Source of the DNA: Bacteroidota bacterium
Lineage (GTDB): Bacteria; Bacteroidota; Ignavibacteria; SZUA-365
Direction: 5' to 3'
Length of the DNA stretch: 64,000 nt
Assembly: GCA_003246455.1 (NCBI GenBank)
Contig: QKAF01000009.1
Location: 85,395 to 149,394, forward strand
In this document: positions 7,126-61,276 of the stretch, in pieces
How positions within the stretch are numbered: position 1 is the first letter of the stretch
Layout of the letters: every line of letters begins with the position of its first letter
Position numbers and translations under genes: made by a program
The notes under the pieces: generated by a model
The model's database searches: none
Told to the model about the DNA's origin: nothing
Seen by the model: the letters and a program-made list of their open reading frames with translations, nothing else

Positions 7126-7350
7126 TCCGGCCGCGATTTCCCGCGATGCGGCTGCCTCATGCATCGGCCGGGGAACGCATGCCACCCTGACAAAATTGTA
7201 ATCCCCAGTTCAGATTTCCGAAAGATACGCGGACTAGATTGGGGTACACTCCCGGAACGCAACCGCGACCACGGGATCGACGTGGTGTTCCTTGAGGACC
7301 GTTCCGGTTCCTCACGGAACCCATGGCATACCCATTACATGGAGGCCAGA

Positions 7351-42462: not shown

Positions 42463-42598
42463 AAGATCCGCTGTAACCACTCATACTTTCTCGTGTCTAG
42501 TCGGGGAACATCGGATGCAGCCGGGGGCCGATCCGCGTTCGCCAGCGACAATCCTTCTCCTACATACAGCCTTTTCCTTACACCAGCCGGAGTTTCCC

Positions 42599-44662
42599 AT
42601 GATGAAGAAACTGGTTCTGTTGGCCGTTCTGGTACTTGTTCCTGGATTGGTCCTGGCACAGAGGGTGAACGTGAAGTCGCCGGAGGCATCGGACAGGAAT
42701 GCCATCGTACAGTCCGCTGCGCGCACCGTCGACTACCGGATGCAGTTCATGCCCGTTACCGAAAAAACGACGCTGCATCGTACGCAGAAGTCCGCGGGCC
42801 TGCGAAAGCCGGCGGAGCGATACGGGCTCACCGAAATCGGAAATATGGCGAACACTTACGCGATGGTCGGCGACAGCCGCAACCAGATCGCATACGATCC
42901 GAACACCAATACCGTTGCGGTGGTCTACCGCGGCAACGATCGCAGCTCAACGAACGGAGACGGGAACACCCTGTACGTCCGCTATTCCACAGATAACGGC
43001 GCGCACTGGACCTCCTCAGGCGACAACGTGGCGAGTTCCACAACACCGCGCTACCCGAACATCTTCCTGCACTGGGACGGCAGTCAGACGGGCACCGCCC
43101 TGATGTGGCCGCAGGTCGACCGCTTCAACGACGGCACCACCGGTTGGCGCGACATCTATTCGATGAAAAGCGATATCGGCAACGGGAACGCCCAGTACGG
43201 CATTGTTCCCGATCCTCCCTTTTGGTCGATCCCTTACCTGACGGTCCCTGATCAGAGCACGGGTGACCTCTACAACATGGCACTCGGCATCGAGCCCACT
43301 TCCGCTGAGGCGTCGACCGGCGAAATCTACCTGCTTCGCTCCACCGACGGGGGGCTGAACTGGACCCCGGTAACTTTCGATGCGCCGGTGTTCACCGCGG
43401 ACATGGTCCCCAACGGGTATTTCTCCTCGAACCTCCGTCTCGACATCAGTCCCGACGGCAGCACGATGATCGTGGCCTTCGCACTGATCATAGAAAGCGA
43501 GCCCGGCAGCGCGTTCCTCCTTGACAAGAATCATGAAATCGCATGGCGTATCTCCACGGACAAGGGTATGACCTGGGGTCCGCTGCAGCGCATGTGGCCG
43601 GGCGACATCAAGAACAAGCCCGCCCCCTTCGACGCGAAATGGGAAATGTCGTGGGATTTCGACGTCATACTCGATTACAAGAATCGCCCGCATTTCCTGA
43701 CCGTTGCCTCCGCCGACATCTATCCGTTCAGCCCATTCAACGACGCGCCGACGGATTCCACCATCAACCTGAGCAGCGTCGACTCCACGTTCGCGACCGA
43801 GATCACCTACTATGAGGATGGCGGGGAACGCGAGTGGCGTATTTTCCCCATCGGACCGGTTCGCCGCGTGCGGATCGACCGAATGTCCTTCACATCCGCC
43901 TCCGCCACCGATTCGCCGGAGATGATCCGCAACGAACCGAAGTGGGCCCGCAGCTGGGACGGGAAAAAGATCTATGCCAAATGGATATCCCCGATGTCTT
44001 CGTGGACCGTCGCCCCGGTGGCCGGCACCCCGACGCTGTTCGCCGACTCCCTCTATCAAATCTACGTCAACGGGCGCCACGTCGACAGTAAATCCGTTCT
44101 CGCATGGACCTACGCATGGCCGTTCGGCTACCCCGACGCGGTGACCCCCGAGATGGACGCCGACATGCGAATGACCGCCACGGAAGACGTGATGACCAAG
44201 TACACGAAGATGGCGTACTACGCCGGCGAGGATGGCTCCCTGCACATCATTTTCGTCGAATGGGGAATCGGCGAGACCCTCGACGACGATCCCGTCAACA
44301 CCGACCAGACCGTCTGGTATTGCGGGACGAGCGGCGAAGGCGCGTTCGTCGTATCGGTGCCGTATGTTCTCGACGTCGAGCAGATCGACGATGTGCCGGG
44401 TGATTTCACCCTTGCACAGAACTACCCCAATCCGTTCAACCCGAGCACGGAAATCACCTTTACGCTTCCGAAAGACGGTCAGACGACGCTCCGCGTCTTC
44501 AACCTACTCGGCCGGGAAGTCGCCACACTCGTCCGTGAGTACCGCAGCGCCGGGACCCATCGCGTGACCTTCGATGCAAGCGCCCTGCCGACCGGCATGT
44601 ACGTCTACCGGCTCGAGAGCGGGCCTTTCACCGCATCCCGGAAAATGATGCTCGGCAAGTAG
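42599..44662 (+). CDS. BNR/Asp-box repeat secreted protein with a T9SS C-terminal domain – paralog B (about three-quarters identical to paralog A)
   Basis: ATG at 42599 (MMKKLVLLAVLVLVPGLVLAQ) follows GGAG. Long blocks match paralog A, for example YSMKSDIGN.NAQYGI…, HFLTV.SADIYPFSPFNDAPTDSTI. Asp-boxes STDNGAHWTS, STDGGLNWTP, STDKGMTWGP. C-terminal LAQNYPNPFNPSTEITFTLP… The 5' part of the six-frame ORF (42515-42598) is not supported. Confidence 0.8.
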   Translation: MMKKLVLLAVLVLVPGLVLAQRVNVKSPEASDRNAIVQSAARTVDYRMQFMPVTEKTTLHRTQKSAGLRKPAERYGLTEIGNMANTYAMVGDSRNQIAYDPNTNTVAVVYRGNDRSSTNGDGNTLYVRYSTDNGAHWTSSGDNVASSTTPRYPNIFLHWDGSQTGTALMWPQVDRFNDGTTGWRDIYSMKSDIGNGNAQYGIVPDPPFWSIPYLTVPDQSTGDLYNMALGIEPTSAEASTGEIYLLRSTDGGLNWTPVTFDAPVFTADMVPNGYFSSNLRLDISPDGSTMIVAFALIIESEPGSAFLLDKNHEIAWRISTDKGMTWGPLQRMWPGDIKNKPAPFDAKWEMSWDFDVILDYKNRPHFLTVASADIYPFSPFNDAPTDSTINLSSVDSTFATEITYYEDGGEREWRIFPIGPVRRVRIDRMSFTSASATDSPEMIRNEPKWARSWDGKKIYAKWISPMSSWTVAPVAGTPTLFADSLYQIYVNGRHVDSKSVLAWTYAWPFGYPDAVTPEMDADMRMTATEDVMTKYTKMAYYAGEDGSLHIIFVEWGIGETLDDDPVNTDQTVWYCGTSGEGAFVVSVPYVLDVEQIDDVPGDFTLAQNYPNPFNPSTEITFTLPKDGQTTLRVFNLLGREVATLVREYRSAGTHRVTFDASALPTGMYVYRLESGPFTASRKMMLGK

Positions 44663-46438: not shown

Positions 46439-47779
46439 ATGTCTACCGCACTGAACGACTTCATGCAGGAAGTCAAAGCCAAGAACCCCGGAGAAGCCGA
46501 GTTTCATCAGGCAGTTGAAGAAGTTGTCGAAACGCTGATGCCGGTTGTTGAAAAGCAGCCGGAATATCGCAAGGCCAAGGTTCTTGAGCGCATGGTCGAA
46601 CCCGAGCGCACCATTTCTTTCCGTGTTCCCTGGGTCGCCGATAACGGAGAAGTCCGCGTCAACCGCGGCTACCGCATCGAGTTCAACAGCGCCATCGGTC
46701 CCTACAAGGGCGGTCTGCGGTTCCACCCGAGTGTCACCCTGAGCATTCTGAAGTTCCTCGGCTTCGAGCAGATCTTCAAGAATTCCCTCACGACGCTCCC
46801 GATGGGCGGCGGAAAGGGCGGTTCGGACTTCGACCCGAAGTTCAAATCGAAAAACGAAATCATGCGTTTCTGCCAGAGCTTTATGAGTGAACTGTTCCGT
46901 CACATCGGCCCGAACACCGACGTGCCCGCCGGCGATATCGGCGTGGGTGGACAGGAAATCGGTTTCATGTTCGGCCAGTACAAAAAGCTGAAAAATTCAT
47001 TCGACGGCGTGCTGACGGGTAAAGGCCTGAGCTGGGGCGGATCCCTCATCCGTCCGGAAGCGACCGGCTTCGGCGTCACCTACTTCGCCAATGAAATGCT
47101 CAAGACCAAGGGCCAGTCCTTCGAAGGCAAGACCGTCGCCATCTCCGGCTTCGGAAATGTCGCCTGGGGCGCGGCGATCAAGGTCAACGACATGGGCGGC
47201 AAGGTCGTCACGCTTTCCGGTCCCGACGGATACATCTTCGACCCCGCCGGCATCTCCGGTGAGAAGATCGAATACATGCTGGAGCTCCGCGCGAGCAACC
47301 AGGACATCGTCGAGCCGTATGCCGAGCGCTTTGGCGTGGAATTCATCCCCAACAAGCACCCGTGGGAAGTCAAGTGCGACGTCGCACTCCCCTGCGCGAC
47401 CCAGAACGAACTCAACGAGGAAGACGCGAAGAACCTGCTCGCAAACGGCTGCATCTGCGTATGCGAAGGCGCGAACATGCCCACCACTCCGGAAGGCGCG
47501 AAGCTGTTCCTTGATGCCGGTCTGCTCTACGGACCTGCCAAGGCGGCGAACGCCGGTGGCGTGGCCGTGTCGGGTCTCGAAATGTCGCAGAACTCCATCC
47601 GCATGAGCTGGTCGCGTGAAGAGGTGGATCAGCATCTGCATCGCATCATGAAGAATATCCACCAATCCTGCCTCGACGCCAGTGCTCAGTACGGCATGGC
47701 AGGGAATTACGTTGCCGGTGCAAACATTGCCGGATTCACGAAAGTGGCCGACGCCATGCTCGCCCAAGGCATCGTATAA
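46439..47779 (+). CDS. gdhA: NADP-specific glutamate dehydrogenase (GdhA type, 446 aa) – copy 1
   Basis: MSTALNDFMQEVKAKNP…[10 protein letters not shown]…[15 protein letters not shown]…[14 protein letters not shown]… are the canonical hexameric GDH (E. coli GdhA-like) blocks. Confidence 0.95.
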   Translation: MSTALNDFMQEVKAKNPGEAEFHQAVEEVVETLMPVVEKQPEYRKAKVLERMVEPERTISFRVPWVADNGEVRVNRGYRIEFNSAIGPYKGGLRFHPSVTLSILKFLGFEQIFKNSLTTLPMGGGKGGSDFDPKFKSKNEIMRFCQSFMSELFRHIGPNTDVPAGDIGVGGQEIGFMFGQYKKLKNSFDGVLTGKGLSWGGSLIRPEATGFGVTYFANEMLKTKGQSFEGKTVAISGFGNVAWGAAIKVNDMGGKVVTLSGPDGYIFDPAGISGEKIEYMLELRASNQDIVEPYAERFGVEFIPNKHPWEVKCDVALPCATQNELNEEDAKNLLANGCICVCEGANMPTTPEGAKLFLDAGLLYGPAKAANAGGVAVSGLEMSQNSIRMSWSREEVDQHLHRIMKNIHQSCLDASAQYGMAGNYVAGANIAGFTKVADAMLAQGIV

Positions 47780-47799
47780 TCCTGCTCCCCCAGGAATGC

Positions 47800-47830
47800 A
47801 AAACCCGGCCGCAAGGCCGGGTTTTGTGTT
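47800..47830. terminator. Bidirectional terminator between convergent gdhA copy 1 and the receiver–PEP-binding gene
   Basis: AAAACCCGGCC-gcaa-GGCCGGGTTTT followed by GTGTTT. Confidence 0.65.
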
Positions 47831-47851
47831 TATGGTCGAATATGCGGCGCG

Positions 47852-50800
47852 CTATGCATGCACTTCGCCGGTCATCTCCTCGTCTTCCTTTTCCTTCTTG
47901 AACACCACCCCTGAACCGCTCTGCCCGTCGACGAGGATCTCGAGACGGTGCGGCGCGCGAACATGACGCACGTACGCGGTTTCGCCGACGATCTCGAGCG
48001 AATCGAGCCACGCCCAGTCGATGGTGTCCTCCGCCTTGTAGTGACGGGTGGTGAAATACGCGATGTGGAAAGAGGTGAGGTTCTGGAAAAAATGCGACCC
48101 CTGCGACGGATCCGGGAGCATATTCGGAAGCGACGTTTCGACGATGGCATGCGCCCCGGAAATCCCCGGGAAGCGGACCGGGATGCCCAGCCAGGGATCG
48201 GCGGAACCCCAGCGCCCCGGACCGATAAGCAGATAGGGACGCTGCTCCTCGACGAGACGCTTGTTGATTTCCGCGATCTCATTGGCCATTTCCTTCGTGC
48301 GCGCATTTTCGAAACTGTCGGGCTTCACGTAGACGATATCCCGCAGCCGGTAAATGCCGTTACCGAGCACGTTCTCGCTCTTCAGCAGCAGTTCCTCACG
48401 CCGGAGGTTTGCGAAGTCGATCTCGACGGTGCCCTCTTCCTTGACCATCGGACGCACCTGGAGGAAATCGAATTCGCTGATATCGTCGAAGTGCCGGCCG
48501 AGCACGCCCGCAAATTCGATTTCCACCGGACAGTTCATCGCCGTTTCGCAGAGTTCCATGAGCAGCCGCAGCACCTTCGCCAGCGGAATATATTCCGACT
48601 GCAGGATCGGCGCGAAATTCACGACGCGGAGTCCTTTCCGGAACGTGCCCTCGTATAGCGAATCGTCCTCTGTGCAGAACGTCGACGCGAGATAGTCGAT
48701 CGTGCCGTACTCCTCGGCGACTTTCATGTCGAGGAAATCCAGGTTTTCGTCCTCGCTCGGATCCTCTTCGAGCGGATGCGACTCGAGGTTCACGGCGAAG
48801 AACTTCTTCTGCGAATTGGTGTAATAGTCCTTCCGCGTGGCGAACTGCGGCATGATCGTCGGATACTGGGGGCAGAACTGCGCGCTGACCCCGCCGTCGA
48901 CGATGGTCTTGCCCAGCCCCACGGCGAGATTCACGATGCCGTCGGCCTGCCGGGCGTCGCCGAACGGGTAGTAGTTGAACGAGCGCGCGACCCCGGAGTA
49001 ATGCGGATAATAATGGTGCTTGTAGCGGCGGCCCGACATCTCCTGGATGATCACCGCCATCTGCTCTTCCTCGAGTCGATGGCCAGTGGCCTCGATGTAG
49101 TTTTTCGCGCCGCGGAGATAGGTCGACGCGTACACGTACTTGATCGCCTGTTCAAGCTCCTGGAATCGCGCGTACGGATCGGGATTGCTGTTCGGAAGCA
49201 TGACCGTGGCATAGATCCCGGCGAACGGCTGATACAGCGTATCCTCGAGAAGACTCGAAGACCGGATCGCGAGCGGATGCTGATTGCGCAGCACGACCGC
49301 GCGCAGATCCTCTTCGATCGTGTTCGGGAAACGGGCGTGCATGAAAAGGCTGACGATTTCCTCGTCGGGGATGTTCTGAATCACCTGCGGAAGCAGGTTG
49401 TTCAGCTCCATGAACTGCACGAAGACCTCGGTACAGAGGATGATGCTCCGAGGAATCTTGATGCGGACATTCGGGAAATACGACGGATGCAGGTAATTCT
49501 TCAGGATGTTGTCGATGAACGCCAGGCCGCGGGCCTTTCCGCCGAGGGACCCCCGGCCGATGCGCAGGAACGTGGCGCGGGAATCGAATTCCTCGTGCGA
49601 GAAATCCGCGATCAGCCCGCGCTCGTCATAGATCACGAGTTCGTCGATTTTCCGGATGATATACCGGCGCAGCGACTCGATGGTCTTGAATTCGGTGATC
49701 TTCACCGGCTTGATTTCCTGCGCCAGCCGGAAACGGGTGCGCGCCAGCAGCCAGTTGCTGAAATGATCCCGCGACGCATGGAAGAGCAGCGAATCGTCGG
49801 GAATCGTATGCAGCCGCTGGCGCAGCTGCCGGATCGTCCGCGCACGGTCGACCTCGGTTCCGTCCGGCATACGGAAGATGAACTCCCCGAAGCCGAAATT
49901 CGTGAGCATGAATTCGCGGACCTCCTGCAGCAGCGTGCGGGAATTCTTGTTCGCGAACGCGGCATCCAGCGCGTCGACCTCGTCGCGAAGATCCTCGCGC
50001 GAGGACTGCACGAGAACGGGGAGCTCCGGACTGTGTTCGCGCACCCGCCGGATGTACTTGAGTCCTGCGAATTCGTCTTCGATATCGTTGATCGGGAACT
50101 TCAGGTCGGTGATGATGCCCAGGAGTTCGTTTCGGTACTTGTGGTAGTAGCGCCATGCCTGCTCGAAATTGGTCGCGTGCAGGATCTTGGGCCGCGCGCG
50201 CTGCCGCAGGAGCTTCTCGGCGAAATTCTTGCCCTCCTCGATCAGCATCTGCCCCTGCTTGATCAGTTCGGTGTAGATCAGCGGCAGGAACGACGAGTAG
50301 AACTGCGGCGAATCCTCGACGAGAATGATGGCGCGAACCCCGAAATCCTTGCAGTCGATGCGCGCATTGGCCAGATCCTCGAGCTGCTTGATAATGGCGA
50401 GAAACAGTTTGCGGTCGCCCGACCAGACGAAGACCCGATCGAACAGATTCAGCGCGCCCTGGTTCATCAGCACCTGCAGTTCCCGGCTCTGGTAGCCGAG
50501 CAGCGCCACGGGCACGTCGGCATGCGCTTCCTTGACCGCCTGACAGAAATCCTGCAGGCGCATGTCGCCGAGGCGCATCATGGTGATGACCAGGTCGAAG
50601 CGGCTCTCATCCATCGCCGCGAGCGCGGCCTCTCCCGAGTAGACCCGCGTGATCGACGGGGCGTAATGCAGATTCAGTTCGAGGTACTCGCTGAAAATCG
50701 CCTCGGTGAGCTGCCCGTCGTCGACCAGGGTATAGAAGTCGTAGCGGCTCGATACGAGCAGGATGTTGTTGACGCGGAAGCGCATCAGATCCTTGAAATC

Positions 50801-50890
50801 CAGGTCGTGCGGACTGATATCCTTGTCGGAAAACCCGAAATCCAGAATGAGGTCGCGCAGCTCGTCGCGCTTGATCCTTTTGCGTTTCAT
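47852..50890 (-). CDS. Multidomain protein: N-terminal pseudo-receiver plus receiver-like (CheY-fold) domains fused to a PEP/pyruvate-binding ATP-grasp nucleotide-binding domain (PPDK_N-like) and a conserved C-terminal module – copy 1 (1012 aa)
   Basis: Minus-strand ATG at 50890 (MKRKRIKRDEL…). Receiver-like segments (…RFRVNNILLVSS…FDLVITMMRLGDM… and …RAIILVEDSP…LGIITDLKFP…PVLVQSS…). PPDK_N hallmark …FLRIGRGSLGGKARGLAFI… and …LAIRSSSLLED…. C-terminal …LLIGPGRWGSADPWLGIPV…SQGSHFFQNLTSFHIAYF…. Confidence 0.8.
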   Translation of the reverse strand: MKRKRIKRDELRDLILDFGFSDKDISPHDLDFKDLMRFRVNNILLVSSRYDFYTLVDDGQLTEAIFSEYLELNLHYAPSITRVYSGEAALAAMDESRFDLVITMMRLGDMRLQDFCQAVKEAHADVPVALLGYQSRELQVLMNQGALNLFDRVFVWSGDRKLFLAIIKQLEDLANARIDCKDFGVRAIILVEDSPQFYSSFLPLIYTELIKQGQMLIEEGKNFAEKLLRQRARPKILHATNFEQAWRYYHKYRNELLGIITDLKFPINDIEDEFAGLKYIRRVREHSPELPVLVQSSREDLRDEVDALDAAFANKNSRTLLQEVREFMLTNFGFGEFIFRMPDGTEVDRARTIRQLRQRLHTIPDDSLLFHASRDHFSNWLLARTRFRLAQEIKPVKITEFKTIESLRRYIIRKIDELVIYDERGLIADFSHEEFDSRATFLRIGRGSLGGKARGLAFIDNILKNYLHPSYFPNVRIKIPRSIILCTEVFVQFMELNNLLPQVIQNIPDEEIVSLFMHARFPNTIEEDLRAVVLRNQHPLAIRSSSLLEDTLYQPFAGIYATVMLPNSNPDPYARFQELEQAIKYVYASTYLRGAKNYIEATGHRLEEEQMAVIIQEMSGRRYKHHYYPHYSGVARSFNYYPFGDARQADGIVNLAVGLGKTIVDGGVSAQFCPQYPTIMPQFATRKDYYTNSQKKFFAVNLESHPLEEDPSEDENLDFLDMKVAEEYGTIDYLASTFCTEDDSLYEGTFRKGLRVVNFAPILQSEYIPLAKVLRLLMELCETAMNCPVEIEFAGVLGRHFDDISEFDFLQVRPMVKEEGTVEIDFANLRREELLLKSENVLGNGIYRLRDIVYVKPDSFENARTKEMANEIAEINKRLVEEQRPYLLIGPGRWGSADPWLGIPVRFPGISGAHAIVETSLPNMLPDPSQGSHFFQNLTSFHIAYFTTRHYKAEDTIDWAWLDSLEIVGETAYVRHVRAPHRLEILVDGQSGSGVVFKKEKEDEEMTGEVHA

Positions 50891-51025
50891 GCATACTCCC
50901 GTTTTGGGGTCAGAACCTATGAATCAATCTACGGATGGAGGCAGCGGAGCGCAAGCTGGGCGCGGAAAAGTTTTTTCCTGACGGGATTTTCCGCATTTTC
51001 GTATTACAGTGATTCGGATTTACTT

Positions 51026-51066
51026 GTAGGGTATTCCCTACATAACTCATGGCGCATTCCCTACAT
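51026..51066. promoter_or_regulatory. Palindrome GTAGGGTATTCCCTAC plus a direct repeat of ATTCCCTACAT in the divergent intergenic region between the receiver–PEP-binding gene (copy 1) and gdhA copy 2
   Basis: Palindrome at 51026-51041. ATTCCCTACAT at 51033-51043 and again at 51056-51066, inside a 388-bp non-coding region that is AT-rich compared with the rest of the window. Confidence 0.3.
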
Positions 51067-51197
51067 CTTGAGATATGGAATGATTGTACTTTTGAGTCAC
51101 GTAATTTCAAATTCATGGGTCTTAAACCCTTTTTCTCGAGCCTGAAAGCGGAACCGGATATCGTCTTCTCCAGTATTGACTGCTATACACTTCATAA

Positions 51198-52622
<1,425 letters not shown>

Positions 52623-52645
52623 TCCCATTCCACCCTCTTCCTTGC

Positions 52646-52684
52646 AAAACGCCCCGCCGCTTCTGCGACGGGGCGTTTTCATTC
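52646..52684. terminator. Bidirectional terminator between convergent gdhA copy 2 and the second receiver–PEP-binding gene
   Basis: AAAACGCCCCGCCGC-ttct-GCGACGGGGCGTTTT followed by CATTCTTT. Confidence 0.65.
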
Positions 52685-52709
52685 TTTCCGATCCTTCCGC
52701 GGCGCGCTT

Positions 52710-55700
52710 CTATGACCCGTTTCGCAGCGTCTGCTTCAGCACCGCCCCGTTGCCGGTGTGGCCGTCCACCAGGATGGTGATATCCTCCGGCGGACGCACG
52801 TGGCGCGTGTGACGCGTCTCCTCGATACAGTCGAGACTGTCGAGCCAGCTCCAGTCGATAGCGTGTTCCTCGTTGTAGTGACGGAGCGTGAAGTACGCGA
52901 TGCGGAAGGACGTGAGGTTCTGAAAGAAGTGCGACCCCTGTGAAGGATCGATGATCATGTTCGGCAGCGTGGTTTCCACGATGGCGCGCGCGGCGGAAAT
53001 GTCGGAGAAAACCACCGGGATGCCCAGCGACGGATCGCTGCTCCCCCAGCGTCCGGGACCGATCAGCAGGTACGACCGGCGCTCGTGCAGCAGGGAGTGG
53101 TTGATCGCACTGATCTCCCCGACCATCTCCCGCGTTTTCATCGCGTCGAACGTGTCCGGCTTGACGTATACGATGTCACGGACTCGCGAAATCCCGTTCC
53201 CGAGCGCCTTCTCGCAGCGGAACAGGAGCTGCTCGCCGGGCAGCGCCTCGATATCGAGATTCGCCCCGGACTCCTGCTTCACCATCGGTCGAAGCTGGAG
53301 AAAACTGAACTCGGCCGGGAGCGGCGTTCCGCTGCCGAGCCGCACCGCGAATTCAATCTCGACCGGCGCGTTCACAGCGGTCTCGCACATGTTGACGAGC
53401 AGCTTGATCACCTGGTTCAGCGGGATGATCTCCGATTTGAGTATGGGAGCGAAAGTCAGGATGCGCGGACCGCTTCGGCTCATTCCCTCGTACAGCCGGT
53501 CATCCTGTCCGGAATACGTGCTGGCCACATGCGTCAGCGTCCCGTGCGCTTCCGCGTCCTTGAGTTCCAGTTCCGCCAGGTTCTGGTCCTCCCGCGGGTA
53601 TTTCCGGATGATATCCGACTGCAGGTCGAGCGCGAAAAACTTCAGCTGGGAATTGTGAAACAGATCCCGTGTCGTGCCGAACTGGGGATACACCGTCGGG
53701 TACGCGGGCGAGAACTGCAGGCTGGTCCCGCCGTCCACGATCGTCTTTCCGAGTCCCAGCGCGAGATTGACGACACCGTCCTTCTGCGTCGCCTTCCCGA
53801 AGGGATAGTAATTGAAAGACCGGGCGACGCCGGAAACGCGCGGATAGAAATACCGTCCGTGCCGCGTTCCCACCATCTCCTGGATGATCACCGCCATCTT
53901 TTCTTCTTCGATGCGGTTCGAAGTCGCCTCGATATAGTTCTTCGCCTGGCGGAAGTACGTGGAGGCGAACACGTACTTGATCGCCTGCAGGAGATTGTGG
54001 AAGCGTACCGAGATGTCCGGACTGCTGTTCGGTATCATGATCGTGGCGTAGATCCCCGCGAACGGCTGGTACATCGCATCCTCCAGCAGCGAGGAGGAGC
54101 GTATCGCCAGCGGGAAACGGGCCTTGTCGAGGATCGCGCGCAGATCGCCCAGGATCGTCGGCGGAAGGTCCGCGTGGAGGAAGGCCCGGAGGATTTCCTG
54201 GTCGGAAACGTTCTGCACAGCGACGGAAAGCAGGTCGTTCTGCTCGACGAATTCCGCGAACACATCCGTTCCGAGCACGATGGTGCGCGGAATGGAGATG
54301 CGCATGTTGGGGAAATAATCGGGTTCGAGATATTTCCGGAGCAGATTGTCCGTGAAGGCGAGACCGCGGCCCTTCCCGCCAAGCGACCCGGAACCGATGC
54401 GAAGGAAAGTGTCTTCCGCGTCATATTCGCCGCGGGCGAAATCCGAGATCACCCCTTTCTGATCCTGCACGAGCTGTTCGTTGATCGCCATGATCAGGTA
54501 CGCCCGCAATTCGTCGATGGAGGGGAACTGGGTGACCTTCACCGGCTTCAGGCGGTTCGACAGTTCGAAGCGCGTTCGCGCCTTAAGCCAGTTGCTGAAG
54601 TGATCGCGCGATGCGTGGAACTCGAGGCAGGCGTCGGGGACGAGGTGGAGACGTTCGCGCAGTTCGCGCAGGTTTCGCGCCCGCGTGACCTCGCTGCCGT
54701 CGGGCATGCGGAAGATGAAATCTCCGAAGCCGAAGTTGTCCTTCATGAAATCGCTCAGCGACTGCAGCAGCATACGCGAGTTCTTGTCGACGAAAGACAT
54801 TCCCTCGCGCTCGATTTCGAGACGCAGTTCGGTGTTGGAAGACTGCACGAGGATCGGGAGTTCGGGATTGTCCGCGCGTACGAGACGGGCCAGTTTGAGT
54901 CCCGCCGGTTCCTCGTCGTTCCCCGCTCCGGGGAATGTCATGTCGGCGATGATGCCGAGCATGGTTCTCCGGTATTTCTCATAGAACGCGACGGCTTCCT
55001 CGAAGGAGCGCGCGAGAAAGATTTTCGGACGGGCCCGCTGCCGAAGCAGCTTGTCCGCGAAGTTCTTCCCTTCCTCGATCAGGTCCTGCACCTGCTGGAT
55101 CAGGTCGGCATACATGAGCGGGAGATACGAGGAATAAAACCACGGCGAATCCTCCACGAGAAGAATCGTGCGCACTCCGAATTCCAGGCAGTCGACGGGC
55201 GCGTTGCGCAGATCCTCGAACAGCTTGATCAGCGCGAGGAACAGCTTCCGGTCGCCCGACCAGACGAATACGTTGTCGAAACAGGTCGTATCGATCGTCT
55301 TGAGGAACATTTCGAATTCGGCGGAGGGAAACGAGAGCAGCACCATCGGAATTTCAGGATGCTGCCGCTTAACCGAAGTGCAGAACGATGCGAGATCCAT
55401 GTCCCCGAGACGCAGCATCGAGATGACGAGGTCGAAATCCTGCGACTCGAGCAGACGCAGGGCCGCTTCACCCGAATTCACCCGGACGATATGCGGCGCA
55501 TAGTGCAGGTTCAGTTCGGTGTACTCGTTGAAAATGGCCTCGGTCAGCTGGCCGTCCTCCACGAGGGTGTAATAGTCGTACAGGCTGGAGACAAGCAGGA
55601 TGTTGTTGATGCGGAAACGCATCAGATCGCGAAAATCGAGCTGCCGCGTGCGCGGAACAGCGTCACCGACCACGTGGAGTCTGATCAGGTCGGTGACTTC

Positions 55701-55727
55701 GTCAATATTTGTGGACCATGACTTCAT
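52710..55727 (-). CDS. Receiver–PEP/pyruvate-binding (PPDK_N-like) multidomain protein – copy 2 (1005 aa), paralog of 47852-50890
   Basis: Minus-strand ATG at 55727 follows AAGAGGA. Same architecture as copy 1 and roughly two-thirds identical to it: …RFRINNILLVSSLYDYY…, …RTILLVEDSP…LGIIADMTFP…, …FLRIGSGSLGGKGRGLAF…, …LIGPGRWGSSDPSLGIPV…SQGSHFFQNLTSFRIAYF… It sits 28 bp downstream of the third dehydrogenase gene on the same strand, suggesting co-transcription. Confidence 0.8.
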   Translation of the reverse strand: MKSWSTNIDEVTDLIRLHVVGDAVPRTRQLDFRDLMRFRINNILLVSSLYDYYTLVEDGQLTEAIFNEYTELNLHYAPHIVRVNSGEAALRLLESQDFDLVISMLRLGDMDLASFCTSVKRQHPEIPMVLLSFPSAEFEMFLKTIDTTCFDNVFVWSGDRKLFLALIKLFEDLRNAPVDCLEFGVRTILLVEDSPWFYSSYLPLMYADLIQQVQDLIEEGKNFADKLLRQRARPKIFLARSFEEAVAFYEKYRRTMLGIIADMTFPGAGNDEEPAGLKLARLVRADNPELPILVQSSNTELRLEIEREGMSFVDKNSRMLLQSLSDFMKDNFGFGDFIFRMPDGSEVTRARNLRELRERLHLVPDACLEFHASRDHFSNWLKARTRFELSNRLKPVKVTQFPSIDELRAYLIMAINEQLVQDQKGVISDFARGEYDAEDTFLRIGSGSLGGKGRGLAFTDNLLRKYLEPDYFPNMRISIPRTIVLGTDVFAEFVEQNDLLSVAVQNVSDQEILRAFLHADLPPTILGDLRAILDKARFPLAIRSSSLLEDAMYQPFAGIYATIMIPNSSPDISVRFHNLLQAIKYVFASTYFRQAKNYIEATSNRIEEEKMAVIIQEMVGTRHGRYFYPRVSGVARSFNYYPFGKATQKDGVVNLALGLGKTIVDGGTSLQFSPAYPTVYPQFGTTRDLFHNSQLKFFALDLQSDIIRKYPREDQNLAELELKDAEAHGTLTHVASTYSGQDDRLYEGMSRSGPRILTFAPILKSEIIPLNQVIKLLVNMCETAVNAPVEIEFAVRLGSGTPLPAEFSFLQLRPMVKQESGANLDIEALPGEQLLFRCEKALGNGISRVRDIVYVKPDTFDAMKTREMVGEISAINHSLLHERRSYLLIGPGRWGSSDPSLGIPVVFSDISAARAIVETTLPNMIIDPSQGSHFFQNLTSFRIAYFTLRHYNEEHAIDWSWLDSLDCIEETRHTRHVRPPEDITILVDGHTGNGAVLKQTLRNGS

Positions 55728-55755
55728 GGATCATCCTCTTCCGCCGGTCGGCTGC

Positions 55756-57042
55756 TCAAACCCAGCCGCGCATCTTGCAGGCTTCCGCGACGCGCGCGAT
55801 CGCGATCATATAGGCCGCGTCCCGCATCGGGATGTTCCGGCGATGCGCCATCTGCGAAACGGCAAAGTATGCATCGGTCATCTTGGTGTCGAGCTTCGCG
55901 ATCACTTCGTCGCGCGTCCAGTAGTAGTTCATGTTGCTCTGCACCTGCTCGAAGTAACTGCAGGTGACGCCGCCGGCGTTTGCAAGGAAGTCCGGGATGA
56001 GCCATATGCCTTTCTCCCGTATGACCGCGTCCGCCGCGGGAGTGGTCGGACCGTTGGCGCCCTCCGCGACGATGCGGACACCGTTCTTCATTCCCTTGAC
56101 CGTGTCGCGGTTCACCTGGTTCTCCATCGCCGCAGGGATGAGGACATCCACTTCCTGCTCGATCCAGGCGTCGCCCGGGAGCACTTCGTACCCGGCATCC
56201 GCGGCCTTGTCGCGGCTGATCTCTCCGTAGGAGTTCGTCATCGCGCGCAGCTGCCTGAGGTCCACGCCGTCTTTTTTTCTCACCGTGAAGGCCGCCTGTG
56301 CTTTCTGATCCCAGCTGGCGACGCTGATCACCTTTCCGCCGTAGGAGTGGAAGAGATCGATGGCGTGCTGTCCGACGTTGCCGAATCCCTGCACCGATGC
56401 GGTACTGTCTTCGATTCGCAGATTCATTTCCGCGAGCGCTTCGCGCACTGCGTAAATCACGCCGTAGCCGGTCGACTCGGTGCGGCCGAGCGACCCGCCC
56501 AGCCCGATGGGCTTGCCCGTGATGAATCCGGGGGCATGTTTCCCCGTGAGCGTCTCGTATTCATCCAGCATCCAGAGCATGTGCTGCGCGGATGTCATCA
56601 CGTCGGGTGCGGGCACGTCGCGGTCGGGTCCGACGCTTTCGACGATATTGCGCACCCAGCCGCGACAGAGTGCCTCCTGCTCTCGCAGCGAAAGGTTGTG
56701 CGGATCGCAGATGACGCCCCCTTTCCCGCCGCCGAGCGGAATGTCGACGACCGCCGTCTTCCAGGTCATCCACATCGAGAGCGCCCGCACGGTGTCGACG
56801 GTCTCCTGCGGATGGAAGCGCACTCCGCCTTTACAGGCGCCGCGCGCGTCATTGTGCTGGATGCGGAATCCGCGGAACACCTGGTAGCTTCCGTCGTCCA
56901 TGCGGATCGGGATGTTGAAGTGAAATTCCTTTGCCGGCGTGCGCAGCAGCGCACGGGTCGCTTCGTCAAGTCCGAGCTGTTCCGCAATCGTATCGAACTG
57001 CTGCTGCGCCATACGGAACGGGTTGAATGCTTCGCCACTCAT
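55756..57042 (-). CDS. Glu/Leu/Phe/Val dehydrogenase family protein, short (~428 aa) GDH type, probably NAD(P)-glutamate dehydrogenase – third GDH-family gene
   Basis: ATG at 57042 follows AGGAGA. MSGEAFNPFRMAQQQFD… with …GACKGGVRFHP…DIPLGGGKGGV…GPDRDVPAPDV… The 5' part of the six-frame ORF (57043-57168) is not supported. Confidence 0.9.
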   Translation of the reverse strand: MSGEAFNPFRMAQQQFDTIAEQLGLDEATRALLRTPAKEFHFNIPIRMDDGSYQVFRGFRIQHNDARGACKGGVRFHPQETVDTVRALSMWMTWKTAVVDIPLGGGKGGVICDPHNLSLREQEALCRGWVRNIVESVGPDRDVPAPDVMTSAQHMLWMLDEYETLTGKHAPGFITGKPIGLGGSLGRTESTGYGVIYAVREALAEMNLRIEDSTASVQGFGNVGQHAIDLFHSYGGKVISVASWDQKAQAAFTVRKKDGVDLRQLRAMTNSYGEISRDKAADAGYEVLPGDAWIEQEVDVLIPAAMENQVNRDTVKGMKNGVRIVAEGANGPTTPAADAVIREKGIWLIPDFLANAGGVTCSYFEQVQSNMNYYWTRDEVIAKLDTKMTDAYFAVSQMAHRRNIPMRDAAYMIAIARVAEACKMRGWV

Positions 57043-57187
57043 GCCTTGTCTCCTGGACGGTACGAAATCGGGTGGAACGGCCGCGCTCCGCAGCCCGCGA
57101 AGATGCGTCCTGAGCAGGCAAGGTATCATTTTTCCCCGGAATTTCCCTATTTTCATCCTGATCTCCACTGTTCACGGGCAGGATGCG

Positions 57188-60100
57188 ATGAACATGAACA
57201 AGAAGGAAAAATCCCTCGGCGACCTGCTGTATGCCCTCGGAGAGCGCGCCAAGGAACTGAACTGCCTCTATCATGTCGAGGAAGTTCTCTCGCGGAACGA
57301 TGCGGCGCAGGAAGAGGTGCTCAATGGAATCATCGCGGCCATCCCGCCGGGATGGCAGTTTCCGGACATCTGCCGCGTCCGAATCCGCCTCGGGAATAAA
57401 TCCTTCACCTCCCCGGAATTCCAGCCCACACAATGGAAGCTCGTTTCCTCCATCGTCGTTCAGGACAAGGTGGAGGGCAGCATCGAAGTCTACTACGCGC
57501 GCGAAGTCGGCACCGCGGACGAGGGGCCCTTCCTGCATGAAGAGCGGAAGCTGATCAACACCATCGCAGAGCGCATCGGACACTATCTCCTCCATCAGCA
57601 GCTCAGGCATGTCTTCAACGAATGGCAGACACTCAAGGAGCAGCTCGCCGAGAACAAGCGGCCGGAGTGGAAAGTCATCCTGGAAATGCTGCGCCGCACC
57701 GATCAGAACCTCTACACGCGCATTTCACGGAAGATGCTGAACCGCCTCTGCTGGTCGGGCATCAAAACCGCCTGCGAATTGATGCAGCGTTTCGGCACGC
57801 GCAACGGGGACAGCCAGGACGTCTTCGGCGAAAGCAACCGTCCCCGGCAGCGCGAGGAGCTCTACAACTTCATGTCGTCGAGCGATGAAATCTTCCAGAT
57901 AGCGGCCGAACATCTCAGCGACGAAGAAATCCTGTCACTGATCCAGAAGTGGATCAAGGACGACAAGGCGTCCTTCCTTGTCAACACGGTCGAGAATCTC
58001 GACACCTCTCTCTCCGAGATCGTCGACGCCATCGGCCGTTTCTACCATATTTTTCCTGAAGGAATTGAACTCTCGCCGTCAACCGAAAAGGGCCTGCGGG
58101 TCTCGCTGATCCGGCGATTCTTCACCGAACAGCTTCCGTACATCAATGTCGCGAAGCAGTACCTCGAGGTGCGCGATTTCGCGGAGCTCGTACGCCGCAT
58201 CATCTTCCATCAGAAAAGCCACGGGAAACTTGGGGGGAAAAGCTCGGGGCTGTTCCTCGCGGGACAGATCCTCATGAAGGAAGGCGGGGAAAGCGGCCGC
58301 TTCCCGAACGTCCGCATTCCGAAGACCTGGTACATCACATCAGACGGCATCCTGAATTTCATCCATTACAATAACCTGGAAGAGGTCTTCAACCAGAAGT
58401 ATCTCGACATCGAGCAGGTGCGCGAGGAATACCCGTCGATCATCCAGGTGTTCAAGAACTCCTATTTCTCCCCGGAATTCATCAAGGGGCTGACGATGGC
58501 GCTGGACGATTTCGGCGACATCCCCCTGATCGTCCGCAGTTCCTCGCTGCTCGAAGACAGCATGAACGCCGCGTTCTCCGGGAAATACAAAAGCCTCTTT
58601 CTCGCGAATACCGGGACGAAAGCCGAGCGGATGGCCGCGCTGCTCGATGCCATCGCGGAAGTGTATGCTTCGACTTTCGGTCCCGATCCCATCGAGTACC
58701 GCGCCGAACGCGGGCTGCTCGATTTCCACGAAGAGATGGGCATCATGATCCAGGAGGTCGTCGGCACGCGCATCGGCCGGTATCTCATGCCGGTATGGTC
58801 GGGCGTCGCGTTCAGTCACAACGAATTCCGCTGGTCGCCGCGCATCAAACGGGAAGACGGCCTGATCCGGCTCGTGCCGGGACTCGGGACGCGCGCGGTG
58901 GATCGCGTGGGAGACGATTATCCCGTGCTCATCGCACCGGGACAGCCGTCGCTCCGCGTGAACATAACACCGGATGAGATTGTCCGTTATTCTCCCAAGA
59001 AAATCGACGTCATCAATCTCGAGAGCAGCAGCTTCGAGACCGTCGATATTCTCGACCTGCTGCGTGAAACCGGACATTCCTACCCGGGCATCAACACCAT
59101 CGTCTCGCAGTATGACGGCGACACCATCCGTCAGCCGTTCGGCTTCGACCTCGATTTCGAAAAGAGCGTGTATGCGGTGACGTTCAACGGACTGATCGCC
59201 AGCACGCGCTTTCTCAAGAATATCCGGGAAATGCTGCTGCTGCTGCAGGAACGCCTCCAGACGCCCGTGGACATCGAATTCGCGTCCGACGGCAGGGACC
59301 TGTACCTCCTGCAGTGCCGGCCGCAGAGTTTCACCCGTCACAATATTCCGGCACCGATCCCGCAGGACATTCCGCGCGAACGGAAGCTGTTCACGGCGCA
59401 GCGCTACATATCGAACGGACACGTGCCCGACATCACGCATATCGTCTACGTCCATCCCGACAGGTACGCCGCCCTGCCCGACCGACAGGCGCTGCTGTCC
59501 GTCGGACGCTGCGTCGGGCGCCTGAACAAGGTTCTGCCCAAGCGCCAGTTCACCCTGATGGGTCCCGGCCGCTGGGGCAGCCGCGGCGACATCAAGCTGG
59601 GGGTGAACGTGACCTACTCCGATATCAACAACACCGCCCTGCTTGTCGAAATTGCGCACGACCTCGGCGGCTACCTCCCCGACCTCTCTTTCGGCACGCA
59701 CTTCTTCCAGGATCTCGTCGAGTCGTCGATCCGCTATCTGCCGCTGTATCCCGACGAGGCGGATGTCCATTTCAACGAAGCCTTCCTGACGCGCAGCAAA
59801 AACATTCTGGCGGACATCCTCCCCGATTACGCGTTTCTGTCCGACACGGTGTTCGTCATCGACGTCAGTGCGAGCAGCGGCGGGAAAATTCTCCGCGTGC
59901 TGATGAATGCGGAAATCGAACAGGCGGTGGGCTATCTCGAGGACCCGGTCAACGTTCAGCCGGAACCGCAGGACTTTCCCGCACCCGTGCAGCGCACCGT
60001 CGAGGATCACTGGGAATGGCGGCTGCGCATGGCCGAACGGCTCGCCAACGATCTCCATCCGGAGGACTTCGGCATCAAGGGACTGTATATCTTCGGGAGC

Positions 60101-60370
60101 ACGAAAAACGGGACAGCGGGGCCGTCGAGCGACATCGACCTGCTCGTGCATCACGACGCGAGCCCCGAGCAGATGCAGTGCATGCAGCACTGGTTTCTCG
60201 GCTGGGGGCAGAGCCTGGCCGAGGTCAACTTCCTCCGCACCGGGTATCGGAATGACAATATTCTCGATATCCACTACGTCACCGACGACGACATCGCGCG
60301 CCGCAGCAGTTACGCCGCGAAAATCAACGCCATCACCGATGCCGCGCGTCCCCTGCGCATTCATCCGTAG
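57188..60370 (+). CDS. Multidomain protein: N-terminal GAF-like region, a PEP/pyruvate-binding ATP-grasp (PPDK_N-like) domain, the shared C-terminal module, and a C-terminal Pol-beta-type nucleotidyltransferase domain (1060 aa)
   Basis: ATG at 57188 (MNMNKKEKSLGDLLYALGERAKELNCLYHV…). The 'ELNCLY' motif is seen at GAF-type sensor N-termini. PPDK_N hallmark …HQKSHGKLGGKSSGLFLA… and …LIVRSSSLLEDS…. Shared module …LMGPGRWGSRGDIKLGV…SFGTHFFQDLVESSIRYL…. C-terminal …LYIFGSTKNGTAGPSSDIDLLVHHD… matches the minimal nucleotidyltransferase motif G[GS]x9-13DxD. It is divergently transcribed from the third GDH-family gene. Confidence 0.8.
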   Translation: MNMNKKEKSLGDLLYALGERAKELNCLYHVEEVLSRNDAAQEEVLNGIIAAIPPGWQFPDICRVRIRLGNKSFTSPEFQPTQWKLVSSIVVQDKVEGSIEVYYAREVGTADEGPFLHEERKLINTIAERIGHYLLHQQLRHVFNEWQTLKEQLAENKRPEWKVILEMLRRTDQNLYTRISRKMLNRLCWSGIKTACELMQRFGTRNGDSQDVFGESNRPRQREELYNFMSSSDEIFQIAAEHLSDEEILSLIQKWIKDDKASFLVNTVENLDTSLSEIVDAIGRFYHIFPEGIELSPSTEKGLRVSLIRRFFTEQLPYINVAKQYLEVRDFAELVRRIIFHQKSHGKLGGKSSGLFLAGQILMKEGGESGRFPNVRIPKTWYITSDGILNFIHYNNLEEVFNQKYLDIEQVREEYPSIIQVFKNSYFSPEFIKGLTMALDDFGDIPLIVRSSSLLEDSMNAAFSGKYKSLFLANTGTKAERMAALLDAIAEVYASTFGPDPIEYRAERGLLDFHEEMGIMIQEVVGTRIGRYLMPVWSGVAFSHNEFRWSPRIKREDGLIRLVPGLGTRAVDRVGDDYPVLIAPGQPSLRVNITPDEIVRYSPKKIDVINLESSSFETVDILDLLRETGHSYPGINTIVSQYDGDTIRQPFGFDLDFEKSVYAVTFNGLIASTRFLKNIREMLLLLQERLQTPVDIEFASDGRDLYLLQCRPQSFTRHNIPAPIPQDIPRERKLFTAQRYISNGHVPDITHIVYVHPDRYAALPDRQALLSVGRCVGRLNKVLPKRQFTLMGPGRWGSRGDIKLGVNVTYSDINNTALLVEIAHDLGGYLPDLSFGTHFFQDLVESSIRYLPLYPDEADVHFNEAFLTRSKNILADILPDYAFLSDTVFVIDVSASSGGKILRVLMNAEIEQAVGYLEDPVNVQPEPQDFPAPVQRTVEDHWEWRLRMAERLANDLHPEDFGIKGLYIFGSTKNGTAGPSSDIDLLVHHDASPEQMQCMQHWFLGWGQSLAEVNFLRTGYRNDNILDIHYVTDDDIARRSSYAAKINAITDAARPLRIHP

Positions 60371-60415: not shown

Positions 60416-61276
60416 TCAGAGCAGTTCCCGCGTTGCGTTCTGCGGAAATTCGGGATCGAAGCGGACCAGCGCGAGCTCGGGACCGCGATGCGCGGCGCTG
60501 TAACACCAGCTGTCTCCGAGTTTTTCCTGCCAGCTTCCGGTGATGGAGGCGGATTCGTGGATATGTCCGTGCAGGGTGATGCGGGGCTGCCGCTTGAGGA
60601 TGAATTTCCTGATCGCGACGCTGCCCACGTGCACGTCCACCGGCGCATGATCGATTTTCCTGCCGTCGAGCGCGGCCCGGTCGAGCGCCGTATTATAGGG
60701 CGGCGCGTGAAAGAGCATGATGGCCTGCGAAAGATCCGTATCCCCGGCAAGCTCCTCCAGGTCGGCCTGTATGGTCGCGTAGCGAATTTCCGACGGATTG
60801 ACCGGAATGCTCCGCCGTCCCTCTTCGGGCGATACGCAGCCCGGATCCACGTAACGCGACACGTCGTACCGCTCCCAGTCCTTGAGCTGGAACGGCGAGG
60901 GCGGCACATAGCTGTATCCATACGCGGTATACCCGCCGATCGAATCGCTGCCGCCGTGCAGATACGTCCACAGCGCGGCAAACCGCGATTCGCGCAGCGA
61001 TGCCTCGACCCGACGCGGGTCGTCGTTCCCGAGGATGAGGAAGACCCGGGGATACTGTTCGCCCAAGGCCTCCGAGAGCCGGCGGAGCTGCGCCGCGAGA
61101 TAATCCTCGATGAAATCCGCGACGACGGGAAATTGTGCCGCGGCCGCGCGATGGGCACCCGGAAGCAGATCTCCGCCGAAGAAAACGGCAGCGGGATGCT
61201 CGCGCTCGATCGCATTGAAAAGCTGTTCGTAACGGCGCTGATGTCCGTGCAGGTCGGAGACGAAAAAACAGTTCAT
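60416..61276 (-). CDS. Calcineurin-like metallophosphoesterase
   Basis: MNCFFVSDLHGHQRRYEQL…VFFGGDLLPG…GNDD… are the classic metallophosphoesterase (MPP) motifs DxH…GD…GNH/D. Confidence 0.8.
   Translation of the reverse strand: MNCFFVSDLHGHQRRYEQLFNAIEREHPAAVFFGGDLLPGAHRAAAAQFPVVADFIEDYLAAQLRRLSEALGEQYPRVFLILGNDDPRRVEASLRESRFAALWTYLHGGSDSIGGYTAYGYSYVPPSPFQLKDWERYDVSRYVDPGCVSPEEGRRSIPVNPSEIRYATIQADLEELAGDTDLSQAIMLFHAPPYNTALDRAALDGRKIDHAPVDVHVGSVAIRKFILKRQPRITLHGHIHESASITGSWQEKLGDSWCYSAAHRGPELALVRFDPEFPQNATRELL

Follow-up and report, generated by a model that had tools for sequence, protein, structure and literature searches.

Glutamate dehydrogenase genes paired with large PPDK_N-type proteins in a Bacteroidota bacterium: a conserved association and a candidate regulatory module

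We consider a 64,000-nucleotide stretch of DNA from a Bacteroidota bacterium (positions 85,395 to 149,394 of contig QKAF01000009.1, assembly GCA_003246455.1), hereafter the window; the homologues of its proteins are labelled Bacteroidota or Ignavibacteria. Three glutamate dehydrogenase (GDH) genes lie here next to the genes of three large proteins that share PPDK_N, the N-terminal ATP-grasp domain of phosphoenolpyruvate (PEP) synthase and pyruvate, phosphate dikinase (PPDK). An earlier note on this DNA, made from the letters alone, described these pairs as a candidate undescribed regulatory system. The core of this proposal stands: the pairing is conserved, and a literature search, which did not include subscription journals, found nothing on the function of the family or on its link to GDH. 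Two parts of the proposal need revision: a GAF domain in one of the large proteins is not supported, and the view of all three as bare ATP-binding modules is probably wrong; in addition, a neighbouring phosphoesterase as well as the core-only and fused variants of the large proteins had been missed.

Genes and domains were called using an open reading frame (ORF) listing and hidden Markov model scans with Pfam and NCBIfam, which confirmed the gene layout and coordinates given earlier. The order is gdhA1→ ←RRP1, gdhA2→ ←RRP2←gdh3, PNT→ ←Metallophos, where RRP1, RRP2 and PNT denote the large proteins. The gene gdhA1 (46439-47779, + strand; 446 aa) converges, across a gap of 72 bp, with RRP1 (47852-50890, - strand; 1012 aa; Pfam PPDK_N and Response_reg). 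A divergent spacer of 388 bp follows and then gdhA2 (51279-52622, + strand; 447 aa counted from MSTALTEF, the ORF itself opening at GTG 51207), which converges across 87 bp with RRP2 (52710-55727, - strand; 1005 aa; PPDK_N and Response_reg, architecture as in RRP1). The distance of 28 bp between gdh3 (55756-57042, - strand; 428 aa from MSGEAF) and RRP2, downstream of it on the same strand, is also as had been described. A spacer of about 150 bp separates gdh3 from the divergent PNT (57188 or 57194 to 60370, + strand; 1058-1060 aa; PPDK_N and NTP_transf_2). Just beyond the range considered earlier, a Metallophos (calcineurin-like) phosphoesterase gene (60416-61276, - strand; 286 aa; Pfam PF00149) converges with PNT across a 45-bp gap.

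The sizes of about 1000–1140 aa assigned to the large proteins are correct for RRP1 and RRP2 and excessive for PNT, which had been taken as 1143 aa. The 1143-aa ORF has its GTG start within gdh3 and overlaps the 5' end of this opposite-strand gene at 56939-57187; it is an ORF-calling artefact of a high-GC genome, and the real start is at 57188 or 57194. The database protein P0241, identical to the PNT of the window, starts with MNKKEK at 57194 and has 1058 aa. A promoter and terminator scan gave counts not above those in shuffled sequence.

All three dehydrogenases contain the Pfam domains ELFV_dehydrog (E 9e-91 in gdhA1) and ELFV_dehydrog_N. The products of gdhA1 and gdhA2 are 73% identical to each other, and gdh3 is 31-34% identical to either. 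With 746 and 780 bits, respectively, gdhA1 and gdhA2 exceed the 536-bit cut-off of NCBIfam PRK09414 ('NADP-specific GDH'); the catalytic GGGKGG motif is present, and both qualify as family I GdhA, gdhA1 being of the hexameric type. The earlier claim of two NADP-dependent GdhA paralogues thus holds as to the family; as to the cofactor, it probably holds for one of them. The fingerprint of gdhA1, GFGNVAWG…LSGPDG, is in common with the NAD-specific enzyme of Clostridium symbiosum, which is also its best PDB match (NAD-GDH 1bgv), and that of gdhA2, GSGNVAQY…SDSSG, is in common with the NADP-GdhA of E. coli. The gdhA genes of the related loci described below divide by the same two dinucleotide-fold fingerprints. 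Judging by these motifs, the two enzymes are probably not both NADP-dependent, gdhA1 being of the NAD type and gdhA2 of the NADP type. The third enzyme, gdh3, is indeed a short (archaeal/Bacillus-type) Glu/Leu/Phe/Val dehydrogenase; its membership is at the Pfam level only, the 447 bits obtained with the NCBIfam model GdhA_Arch being below the equivalog cut-off of 750. Since the gdhA1 and gdhA2 fingerprints differ and gdh3 is of the short type, the three GDHs of this organism probably differ in cofactor use or direction; without control, they would presumably form a futile cycle.

PPDK_N (PF01326) is found in all three large proteins with E-values of 4e-37, 1e-39 and 2e-58 (model positions 3-312/322 of 328), and the motifs SLGGKARGL and IRSSSLLED agree with the LGGKxxGL and SSSLLED read earlier. 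The nucleotide/Mg motifs of the ATP-grasp (GGK, RSSSLLED, EIEFA and LQxRP) are invariant in the RRP and PNT alignments, which comprised 14 RRP sequences and 25 PNT homologues. As had been stated, the PEP/pyruvate TIM barrel is absent: PF02896 gave no Pfam match in these proteins, and they have no free stretch long enough to hold it. The NCBIfam scores are 20-57 bits against PEP synthase cut-offs of 598-1063; the top weak matches (PEP synthase, rifampin phosphotransferase and PigC/RedH) fall short of their cut-offs by one to two orders of magnitude and do not extend over the whole ATP-grasp. The large proteins are therefore not ordinary PEP synthases or PPDKs (no TIM barrel; 20-57 bits against 500-1300). 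A PEP synthase or PPDK gene, sought for building a PEP-utiliser profile, was found neither in the window nor in the related loci.

RRP1 and RRP2 are 61% identical. On the - strand, RRP1 consists of a pseudo-receiver (residues ~40-160, nt 50411-50773), a receiver (REC2; residues 185-317, nt 49940-50338), a region weakly matching Pfam DUF5752 (residues 335-425, nt 49616-49888), the PPDK_N ATP-grasp (residues 440-818, nt 48437-49573), and a C-terminal swivel-type domain (residues 830-1000, nt 47891-48403). Receiver or pseudo-receiver domains had been attributed to two of the large proteins, and each RRP has in fact a pseudo-receiver followed by a receiver with conserved residues. The first of these domains, REC1, is considered a pseudo-receiver because SS replaces its acidic pair and an acceptor Asp is absent (ILLVSS…, DLVITMM…). 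REC2 matches PF00072 and keeps the residues expected of a receiver (E192/D193, D262, S296 and K315, invariant or ≥90% conserved). DUF5752 is not mentioned in the literature searched. In a Foldseek search with the full AF2 (AlphaFold2) model of an RRP (pLDDT 76), the best match was the ATP-grasp of rifampin phosphotransferase (5hv1), and the second was the tandem receivers of PleD.

The C-terminal 170-190 residues of the RRPs are conserved and have an equivalent in PNT; they include the motifs GPGRWGSxDP and PSQG[ST]HFFQ[ND]L. The His of the second motif is invariant in every alignment, among them those of the 14 RRP sequences, of the 25 PNT homologues and of 37 sequences that include PNT, and it is also kept in the core-only forms. 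We predict that it is a phospho-carrier; its codon is at 48092-48094 (- strand) for His933 of RRP1, where the motif reads PSQGSHFFQN, at 52929-52931 (- strand) for His933 of RRP2, and at 59699-59701 (+ strand) for His838 of PNT. In the RRP model, His933 is at the N-terminus of a helix, after a loop. The C-terminal domain alone gave no useful Pfam match at E≤10, and PF00391 did not recognise it. Foldseek gave nothing significant with it. The hits noted for the domain include the PEP-utiliser-like C-domain of B. stearothermophilus pyruvate kinase, maize PPDK and the N-domains of Enzyme I. The other hits are LD-carboxypeptidase, the apical domains of GroEL and the transferrin receptor, RraA, cyclases and LeuD, all of which we take to have the 'swivelling β/β/α' fold (SCOP). 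The SSDPW and G[ST]H motifs align with T-D-P-x-W and T-S-H of the mobile domains of PEP utilisers (PF00391).

Membership of this domain in the swivelling phospho-His superfamily is supported by its place immediately behind the ATP-grasp (which ends near residue 818, the domain starting about 12 residues later, near 830), by the His at the helix N-terminus and by the SSDPW/G[ST]H resemblance; it is probable but not proven, since Foldseek gave no significant match. The earlier statement that the His swivel is missing is thus probably wrong; what the large proteins lack is an acceptor-binding domain. They are probably complete modules of an ATP-grasp and a phospho-His carrier, phosphotransferases of the dikinase type without a built-in acceptor domain rather than bare ATP-binding modules. 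With the profile of the C-terminal domain, about 2000 clusters (50% identity) were collected from 1.84 billion representatives; their lengths group near 580-620 aa (core only), 1000 aa (RRP), 1060 aa (PNT) and 1500-1650 aa (fusions).

PNT is 29-31% identical to RRP1 and RRP2 over the ATP-grasp and His domains. On the + strand, it consists of a conserved N-terminal domain with the invariant ERxKELxCLY and no assigned fold (residues 1-335), the PPDK_N ATP-grasp (residues 340-728, nt 58205-59371), the swivel-type domain (residues 735-925, nt 59390-59962), and a Pol-β nucleotidyltransferase (NTase) with GS…DIDLLV (residues 950-1060, nt 60035-60367). The NTase proposed earlier is well supported: NTP_transf_2 (PF01909) matches the full protein with E 6e-8 and the isolated domain with E 3e-9, and the Pol-β motif residues G970, S971, D982, D984 and D1027 are invariant in the 25 PNT homologues. 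The N-terminal GAF proposed together with it is not: neither GAF nor any other Pfam domain matched the N-terminus at E≤10, and the profile of the 25 homologues found nothing in the PDB for residues 1-340. The NTase comes closest to MntA (23.6 bits, where 60 is the cut-off), ANT(4') and kanamycin nucleotidyltransferase, and neither GlnE nor GlnD is among the NCBIfam models matched by PNT.

The conservation of the pairing was studied in a scan of one genome per GTDB species. It found at least 594 encoded relatives; the best 80 of these were taken as loci with 10-kb flanks, and 101 PPDK_N-type genes lie within them. The taxon labels of the 80 loci, which are partly those of metagenome-assembled genomes (MAGs) and not always reliable, include Ignavibacteria, Bacteroidota, Acidobacteriota, Gemmatimonadota, Eisenbacteria, Zixibacteria, KSB1, Calditrichia, Actinomycetota, Desulfobacterales and others. 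By tblastn, 57 of the 80 loci have a GDH no more than 10 kb away. If adjacency is defined as a distance of at most 600 bp, 62 of the 101 PPDK_N-type genes adjoin a GDH gene, in several gene orders and in many phyla. In the most frequent arrangement (35 cases), gdhA directly precedes the PPDK_N-type gene on the same strand; the convergent arrangement of the window and RRP→gdh3 pairs also occur. All-against-all clustering of the 1009 flanking ORFs placed GDH in 51 loci and the next family in 6, i.e., GDH is the only recurrent neighbour family in the 80 loci. The adjacency is not unique to this genome, and its conservation in different phyla puts the pairing far above what chance would give. The idea of the earlier note has thus withstood both of the conditions that the note had set for its refutation.

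The association also extends to the type of GDH. Tandem gdhA-RRP-gdhA-RRP-gdh3 arrays are present in three loci (L014, L024 and L031), and three more loci (L020, L009 and L051) have similar arrays that, in the sequence fetched, are interrupted or not complete. A neighbour-joining tree separates an RRP clade always preceded by a gdhA1-like gene from one preceded by a gdhA2-like gene, to which gdh3 is often added downstream; a third clade consists of PNT and travels with gdh3.

Look-ups of PNT homologues and four extra places in Bacteroidales added loci outside the set of 80. In L084 and L086, which belong to two lineages, gdh3→core-only PPDK_N→PNT←Metallophos operons were found, with 35-bp gaps and an 8-bp overlap. 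The core-only PPDK_N/His proteins between gdh3 and PNT (L084 4137-6008; L086 4236-6011) have ~590-620 aa and no receiver; a core-only protein of about 600 aa is 43% identical to residues 428-997 of RRP1. In L085 (6001-10902), the core-only protein and PNT are fused into one protein of 1633 aa, which follows gdh, and several such fusions of 1630-1655 aa are among the PNT homologues.

Orthologues of the Metallophos gene adjoin PNT homologues in L083 (9194-10105), L084 (10001-10864), L086 (9185-10057), L075 (12999-13844) and L001/L003/L005. One more adjoins an RRP-GDH pair in the Bacteroidales locus L081 (7104-7952; Metallophos→RRP→GDH), and its product is 52% identical to that in the window. The Metallophos gene thus belongs to the conserved PNT module, and its product may be the reversing enzyme of the system. 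Neither NCBIfam nor the PDB sequence search resolved its subtype, the sole NCBIfam hint being 'phosphodiesterase' with 18 bits, far below the cut-off.

Some further loci are worth recording. In the Bacteroidales loci L082, L087 and L088, the RRP is often not beside GDH; in L082 and L087, a D-serine dehydratase-like gene (Ala_racemase_N/D-ser_dehydrat) is a few genes away. A shorter PNT-like protein of ~780 aa is encoded directly downstream of the RRP in L006 (3516-5879) and L007 (12087-14420), with no GDH in the available flanks; these proteins form a separate branch next to the PNT clade. The Polyangia MAG locus L065 (8352-14281) has two tandem RRP-like genes and no GDH in the flanks. In B. 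thetaiotaomicron, BT1971 or BT1972 was considered as a possible RRP between two gdh genes; BT1971 is a catalase, and the case is not used as evidence here.

The remaining part of the window contains housekeeping genes and cargo of type-IX secretion. Por_Secre_tail sorting domains are found at 6331-7125, 7159-9990, 40201-42246 and 42515-44662 (all + strand), which is consistent with an organism of the FCB group; two of these four proteins have BNR/Reelin-like repeats. A very large ORF (18423-24494, - strand; 2023 aa) has a coding-like third-position GC content (GC3) of 0.77. Among the part of the window ORFs scanned with Pfam, there was no sensor kinase, PII protein or glutamine synthetase.

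The family very probably functions at the GDH/glutamate node. As the pairing recurs across many phyla, we believe that it is probably an undescribed switch on a central carbon–nitrogen enzyme. As to how such a switch might work, we tentatively favour the following: the large proteins could be input-gated ATP→His phosphotransferases that covalently control the partner GDH, and the window would contain three units of a widespread module. The input module would set the activity; in RRP1 and RRP2, it would be the pseudo-receiver together with a phosphorylatable receiver fed by a sensor kinase, and in PNT, the N-terminal domain. The invariant His would then be charged from ATP, as in PEP synthase and rifampin phosphotransferase, and the swivel domain would carry the phosphoryl group over to the GDH encoded by the adjacent gene or to a ligand bound to this GDH. 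The isoenzyme would thereby be switched on or off, so that the NAD-, NADP- and short-type GDHs would not all be active together. PNT would also nucleotidylylate its target via the Pol-β domain, and the adjacent Metallophos would remove the modification. What the data show is which domains are present, which residues are invariant, and that the gene pairing is conserved and specific to clades; we infer the ATP→His step, GDH as the acceptor (from gene context), the sign of the effect, and Metallophos as the eraser. GDH is the only conserved candidate for an in-trans acceptor because the core-only forms (about 590 aa), which have no receiver, keep both the His and the GDH linkage. In its most specific form, a receiver-gated ATP-grasp/swivel-His 'protein dikinase' would phosphorylate a specific GDH, PNT would nucleotidylylate it and Metallophos would reverse this, which would amount to a GlnE-like switch across many phyla; we regard this version as possible, if doubtful.

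A number of observations weigh against GDH as the modified partner. Its link to the large proteins is one of gene context. About 40% of the sampled family genes have no adjacent GDH; three of the four extra Bacteroidales places are unlinked to it; and in the Lentimicrobiaceae locus L080, GDH is ~1.3 kb downstream, with another gene between. In the Phycisphaerae locus L083 (1-5321), PNT and Metallophos follow glutamate synthase-type genes (Glu_synthase and an NADH/FeS subunit) and not GDH. No conserved alternative partner was found in the GDH-less loci, whose neighbours are unrelated (ornithine transcarbamylase, a GAF-histidine kinase, LplA, radical-SAM and VWA proteins). Comparison with the E. 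coli and C. symbiosum GDHs revealed no family-specific Ser, Thr, Tyr or His common to all RRP-linked GdhA, two outgroups being too few for a conclusion; the residues kept in the RRP-linked GdhA and absent from both outgroups are F178, W199, L283, D329 and G422 only. No family of sensor kinases is conserved near these genes across the 80 loci. To our knowledge, the ATP-grasp/swivel-His enzymes characterised so far all have small molecules, and not proteins, as phosphoryl acceptors.

In line with the latter point, the large proteins might be small-molecule dikinases acting on a metabolite of the glutamate/2-oxoglutarate node or on an effector of this node, with GDH co-transcribed for metabolic reasons and itself unmodified. 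The characterised relatives, which include PEP synthase, PPDK, rifampin phosphotransferase and PigC/RedH, all have small molecules or glucans as substrates; 5hv1 heads the structural matches, and the position of PNT beside glutamate synthase in one locus points to a pathway and not to one protein. However, the proteins have no domain that would bind an acceptor: only about 12 residues are found where rifampin phosphotransferase has a large binding domain, and the only unassigned piece of the RRPs is the ~90-residue DUF5752-like region. Moreover, the RRP clades track the GDH paralogue type, which is expected for protein-specific partners and needless for a shared metabolite, and one metabolite does not require three paralogous dikinases. 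We therefore consider this explanation unlikely. Signalling without covalent modification of GDH is distinctly unlikely. The large protein would then be an atypical ATP→His→Asp autokinase combined with its response regulator, or an ATP/AMP sensor, which binds GDH allosterically or uses it as a sensor of 2-oxoglutarate/glutamate. The presence of a phosphorylatable receiver and a putative phospho-His carrier on one chain, the name 'histidine kinase' in some database records of the family, and the lack of a conserved partner kinase nearby agree with it; however, the core-only and PNT forms, which have no receiver, keep the His and the GDH linkage, and the conserved phosphoesterase and the NTase of the PNT module suggest that an external target is modified covalently.

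For PNT only, the NTase might make a nucleotide-derived signal that Metallophos degrades, with GDH at most an indirect target. The conserved pairing of a Pol-β NTase with a calcineurin-like phosphoesterase, along with the faint 'phosphodiesterase' hint, would fit such a scheme. We find it highly unlikely considering that the nearest matches of the NTase are minimal NTases modifying proteins or drugs and not cyclases, and that the fused ATP-grasp/His module would be left unexplained. Finally, the existence of family members unlinked to GDH might suggest that the adjacency is due to chance or hitch-hiking, or that ordinary PEP synthases were mis-called. The former would place GDH next to ~0.2% of the genes (a rough value for up to three GDHs among ~3500 genes and two flanks), compared with the 62 of 101 found, and the latter disagrees with the missing TIM barrel and with scores far below the cut-offs. 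The adjacency counts and neighbour clustering effectively refute this explanation.

The proposed covalent control of GDH by the large proteins can be compared with several known systems. Rifampin phosphotransferase (5HV1) has a large substrate-binding domain between its two modules, which is absent from the RRPs and PNT; unlike them, it has no receiver, NTase, DUF5752-like region or link to GDH. In sequence, the likeness does not go beyond a part of the ATP-grasp (18-57 bits, the cut-offs being 880-1350, PigC/RedH included), and the rifampin phosphotransferase model NF041857 gave 18-33 bits against a cut-off of 999. The family differs from PEP synthase and PPDK in the absence of the PEP/pyruvate TIM barrel, in a His domain too divergent for PF00391, in the domain order, and in the added input modules. 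PleD resembles the RRPs in that an N-terminal pair of a true receiver and a pseudo-receiver precedes an enzyme; however, its output is GGDEF and not an ATP-grasp/His module, and it is the first receiver domain that is degenerate in the RRPs. In the literature searched, the REC-PPDK fusion is found only as an entry of a response-regulator census (PMC5847659).

In GlnE and GlnD, a Pol-β-fold NTase is a part of a large multidomain regulator, which exerts covalent reversible control of ammonium assimilation. The concept is alike, with no membership at the sequence level; their targets are glutamine synthetase and PII, whereas that of PNT is presumably GDH. PNT combines its NTase with a dikinase module in one chain, and the removal of the modification would be performed by the separate Metallophos. 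Enzyme I-Ntr (PtsP), likewise similar in logic and not by membership in sequence, is charged by PEP through its TIM barrel and transfers the phosphoryl group to a protein; here, the charging would be by ATP through the ATP-grasp, and no HPr- or NPr-like gene is conserved near the family genes in the 80 loci. The domains are known; what is new is their architecture and the fact that they are partnered with a central enzyme.

Almost certainly, thousands of database entries bear a wrong name, namely, 'phosphoenolpyruvate synthase', 'pyruvate, water dikinase' or 'histidine kinase'. GDH is the junction of carbon and nitrogen metabolism, and covalent control is textbook knowledge for glutamine synthetase, not for bacterial GDH. 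If the GDH protein is the acceptor, the finding would be categorically new, extending the PEP-synthase/PPDK chemistry from small molecules to proteins. For bacteria with multiple GDHs, a conserved partner specific to the isoenzyme would provide a concrete, testable mechanism against futile cycling, and it could explain how two-component signals reach central metabolism directly.

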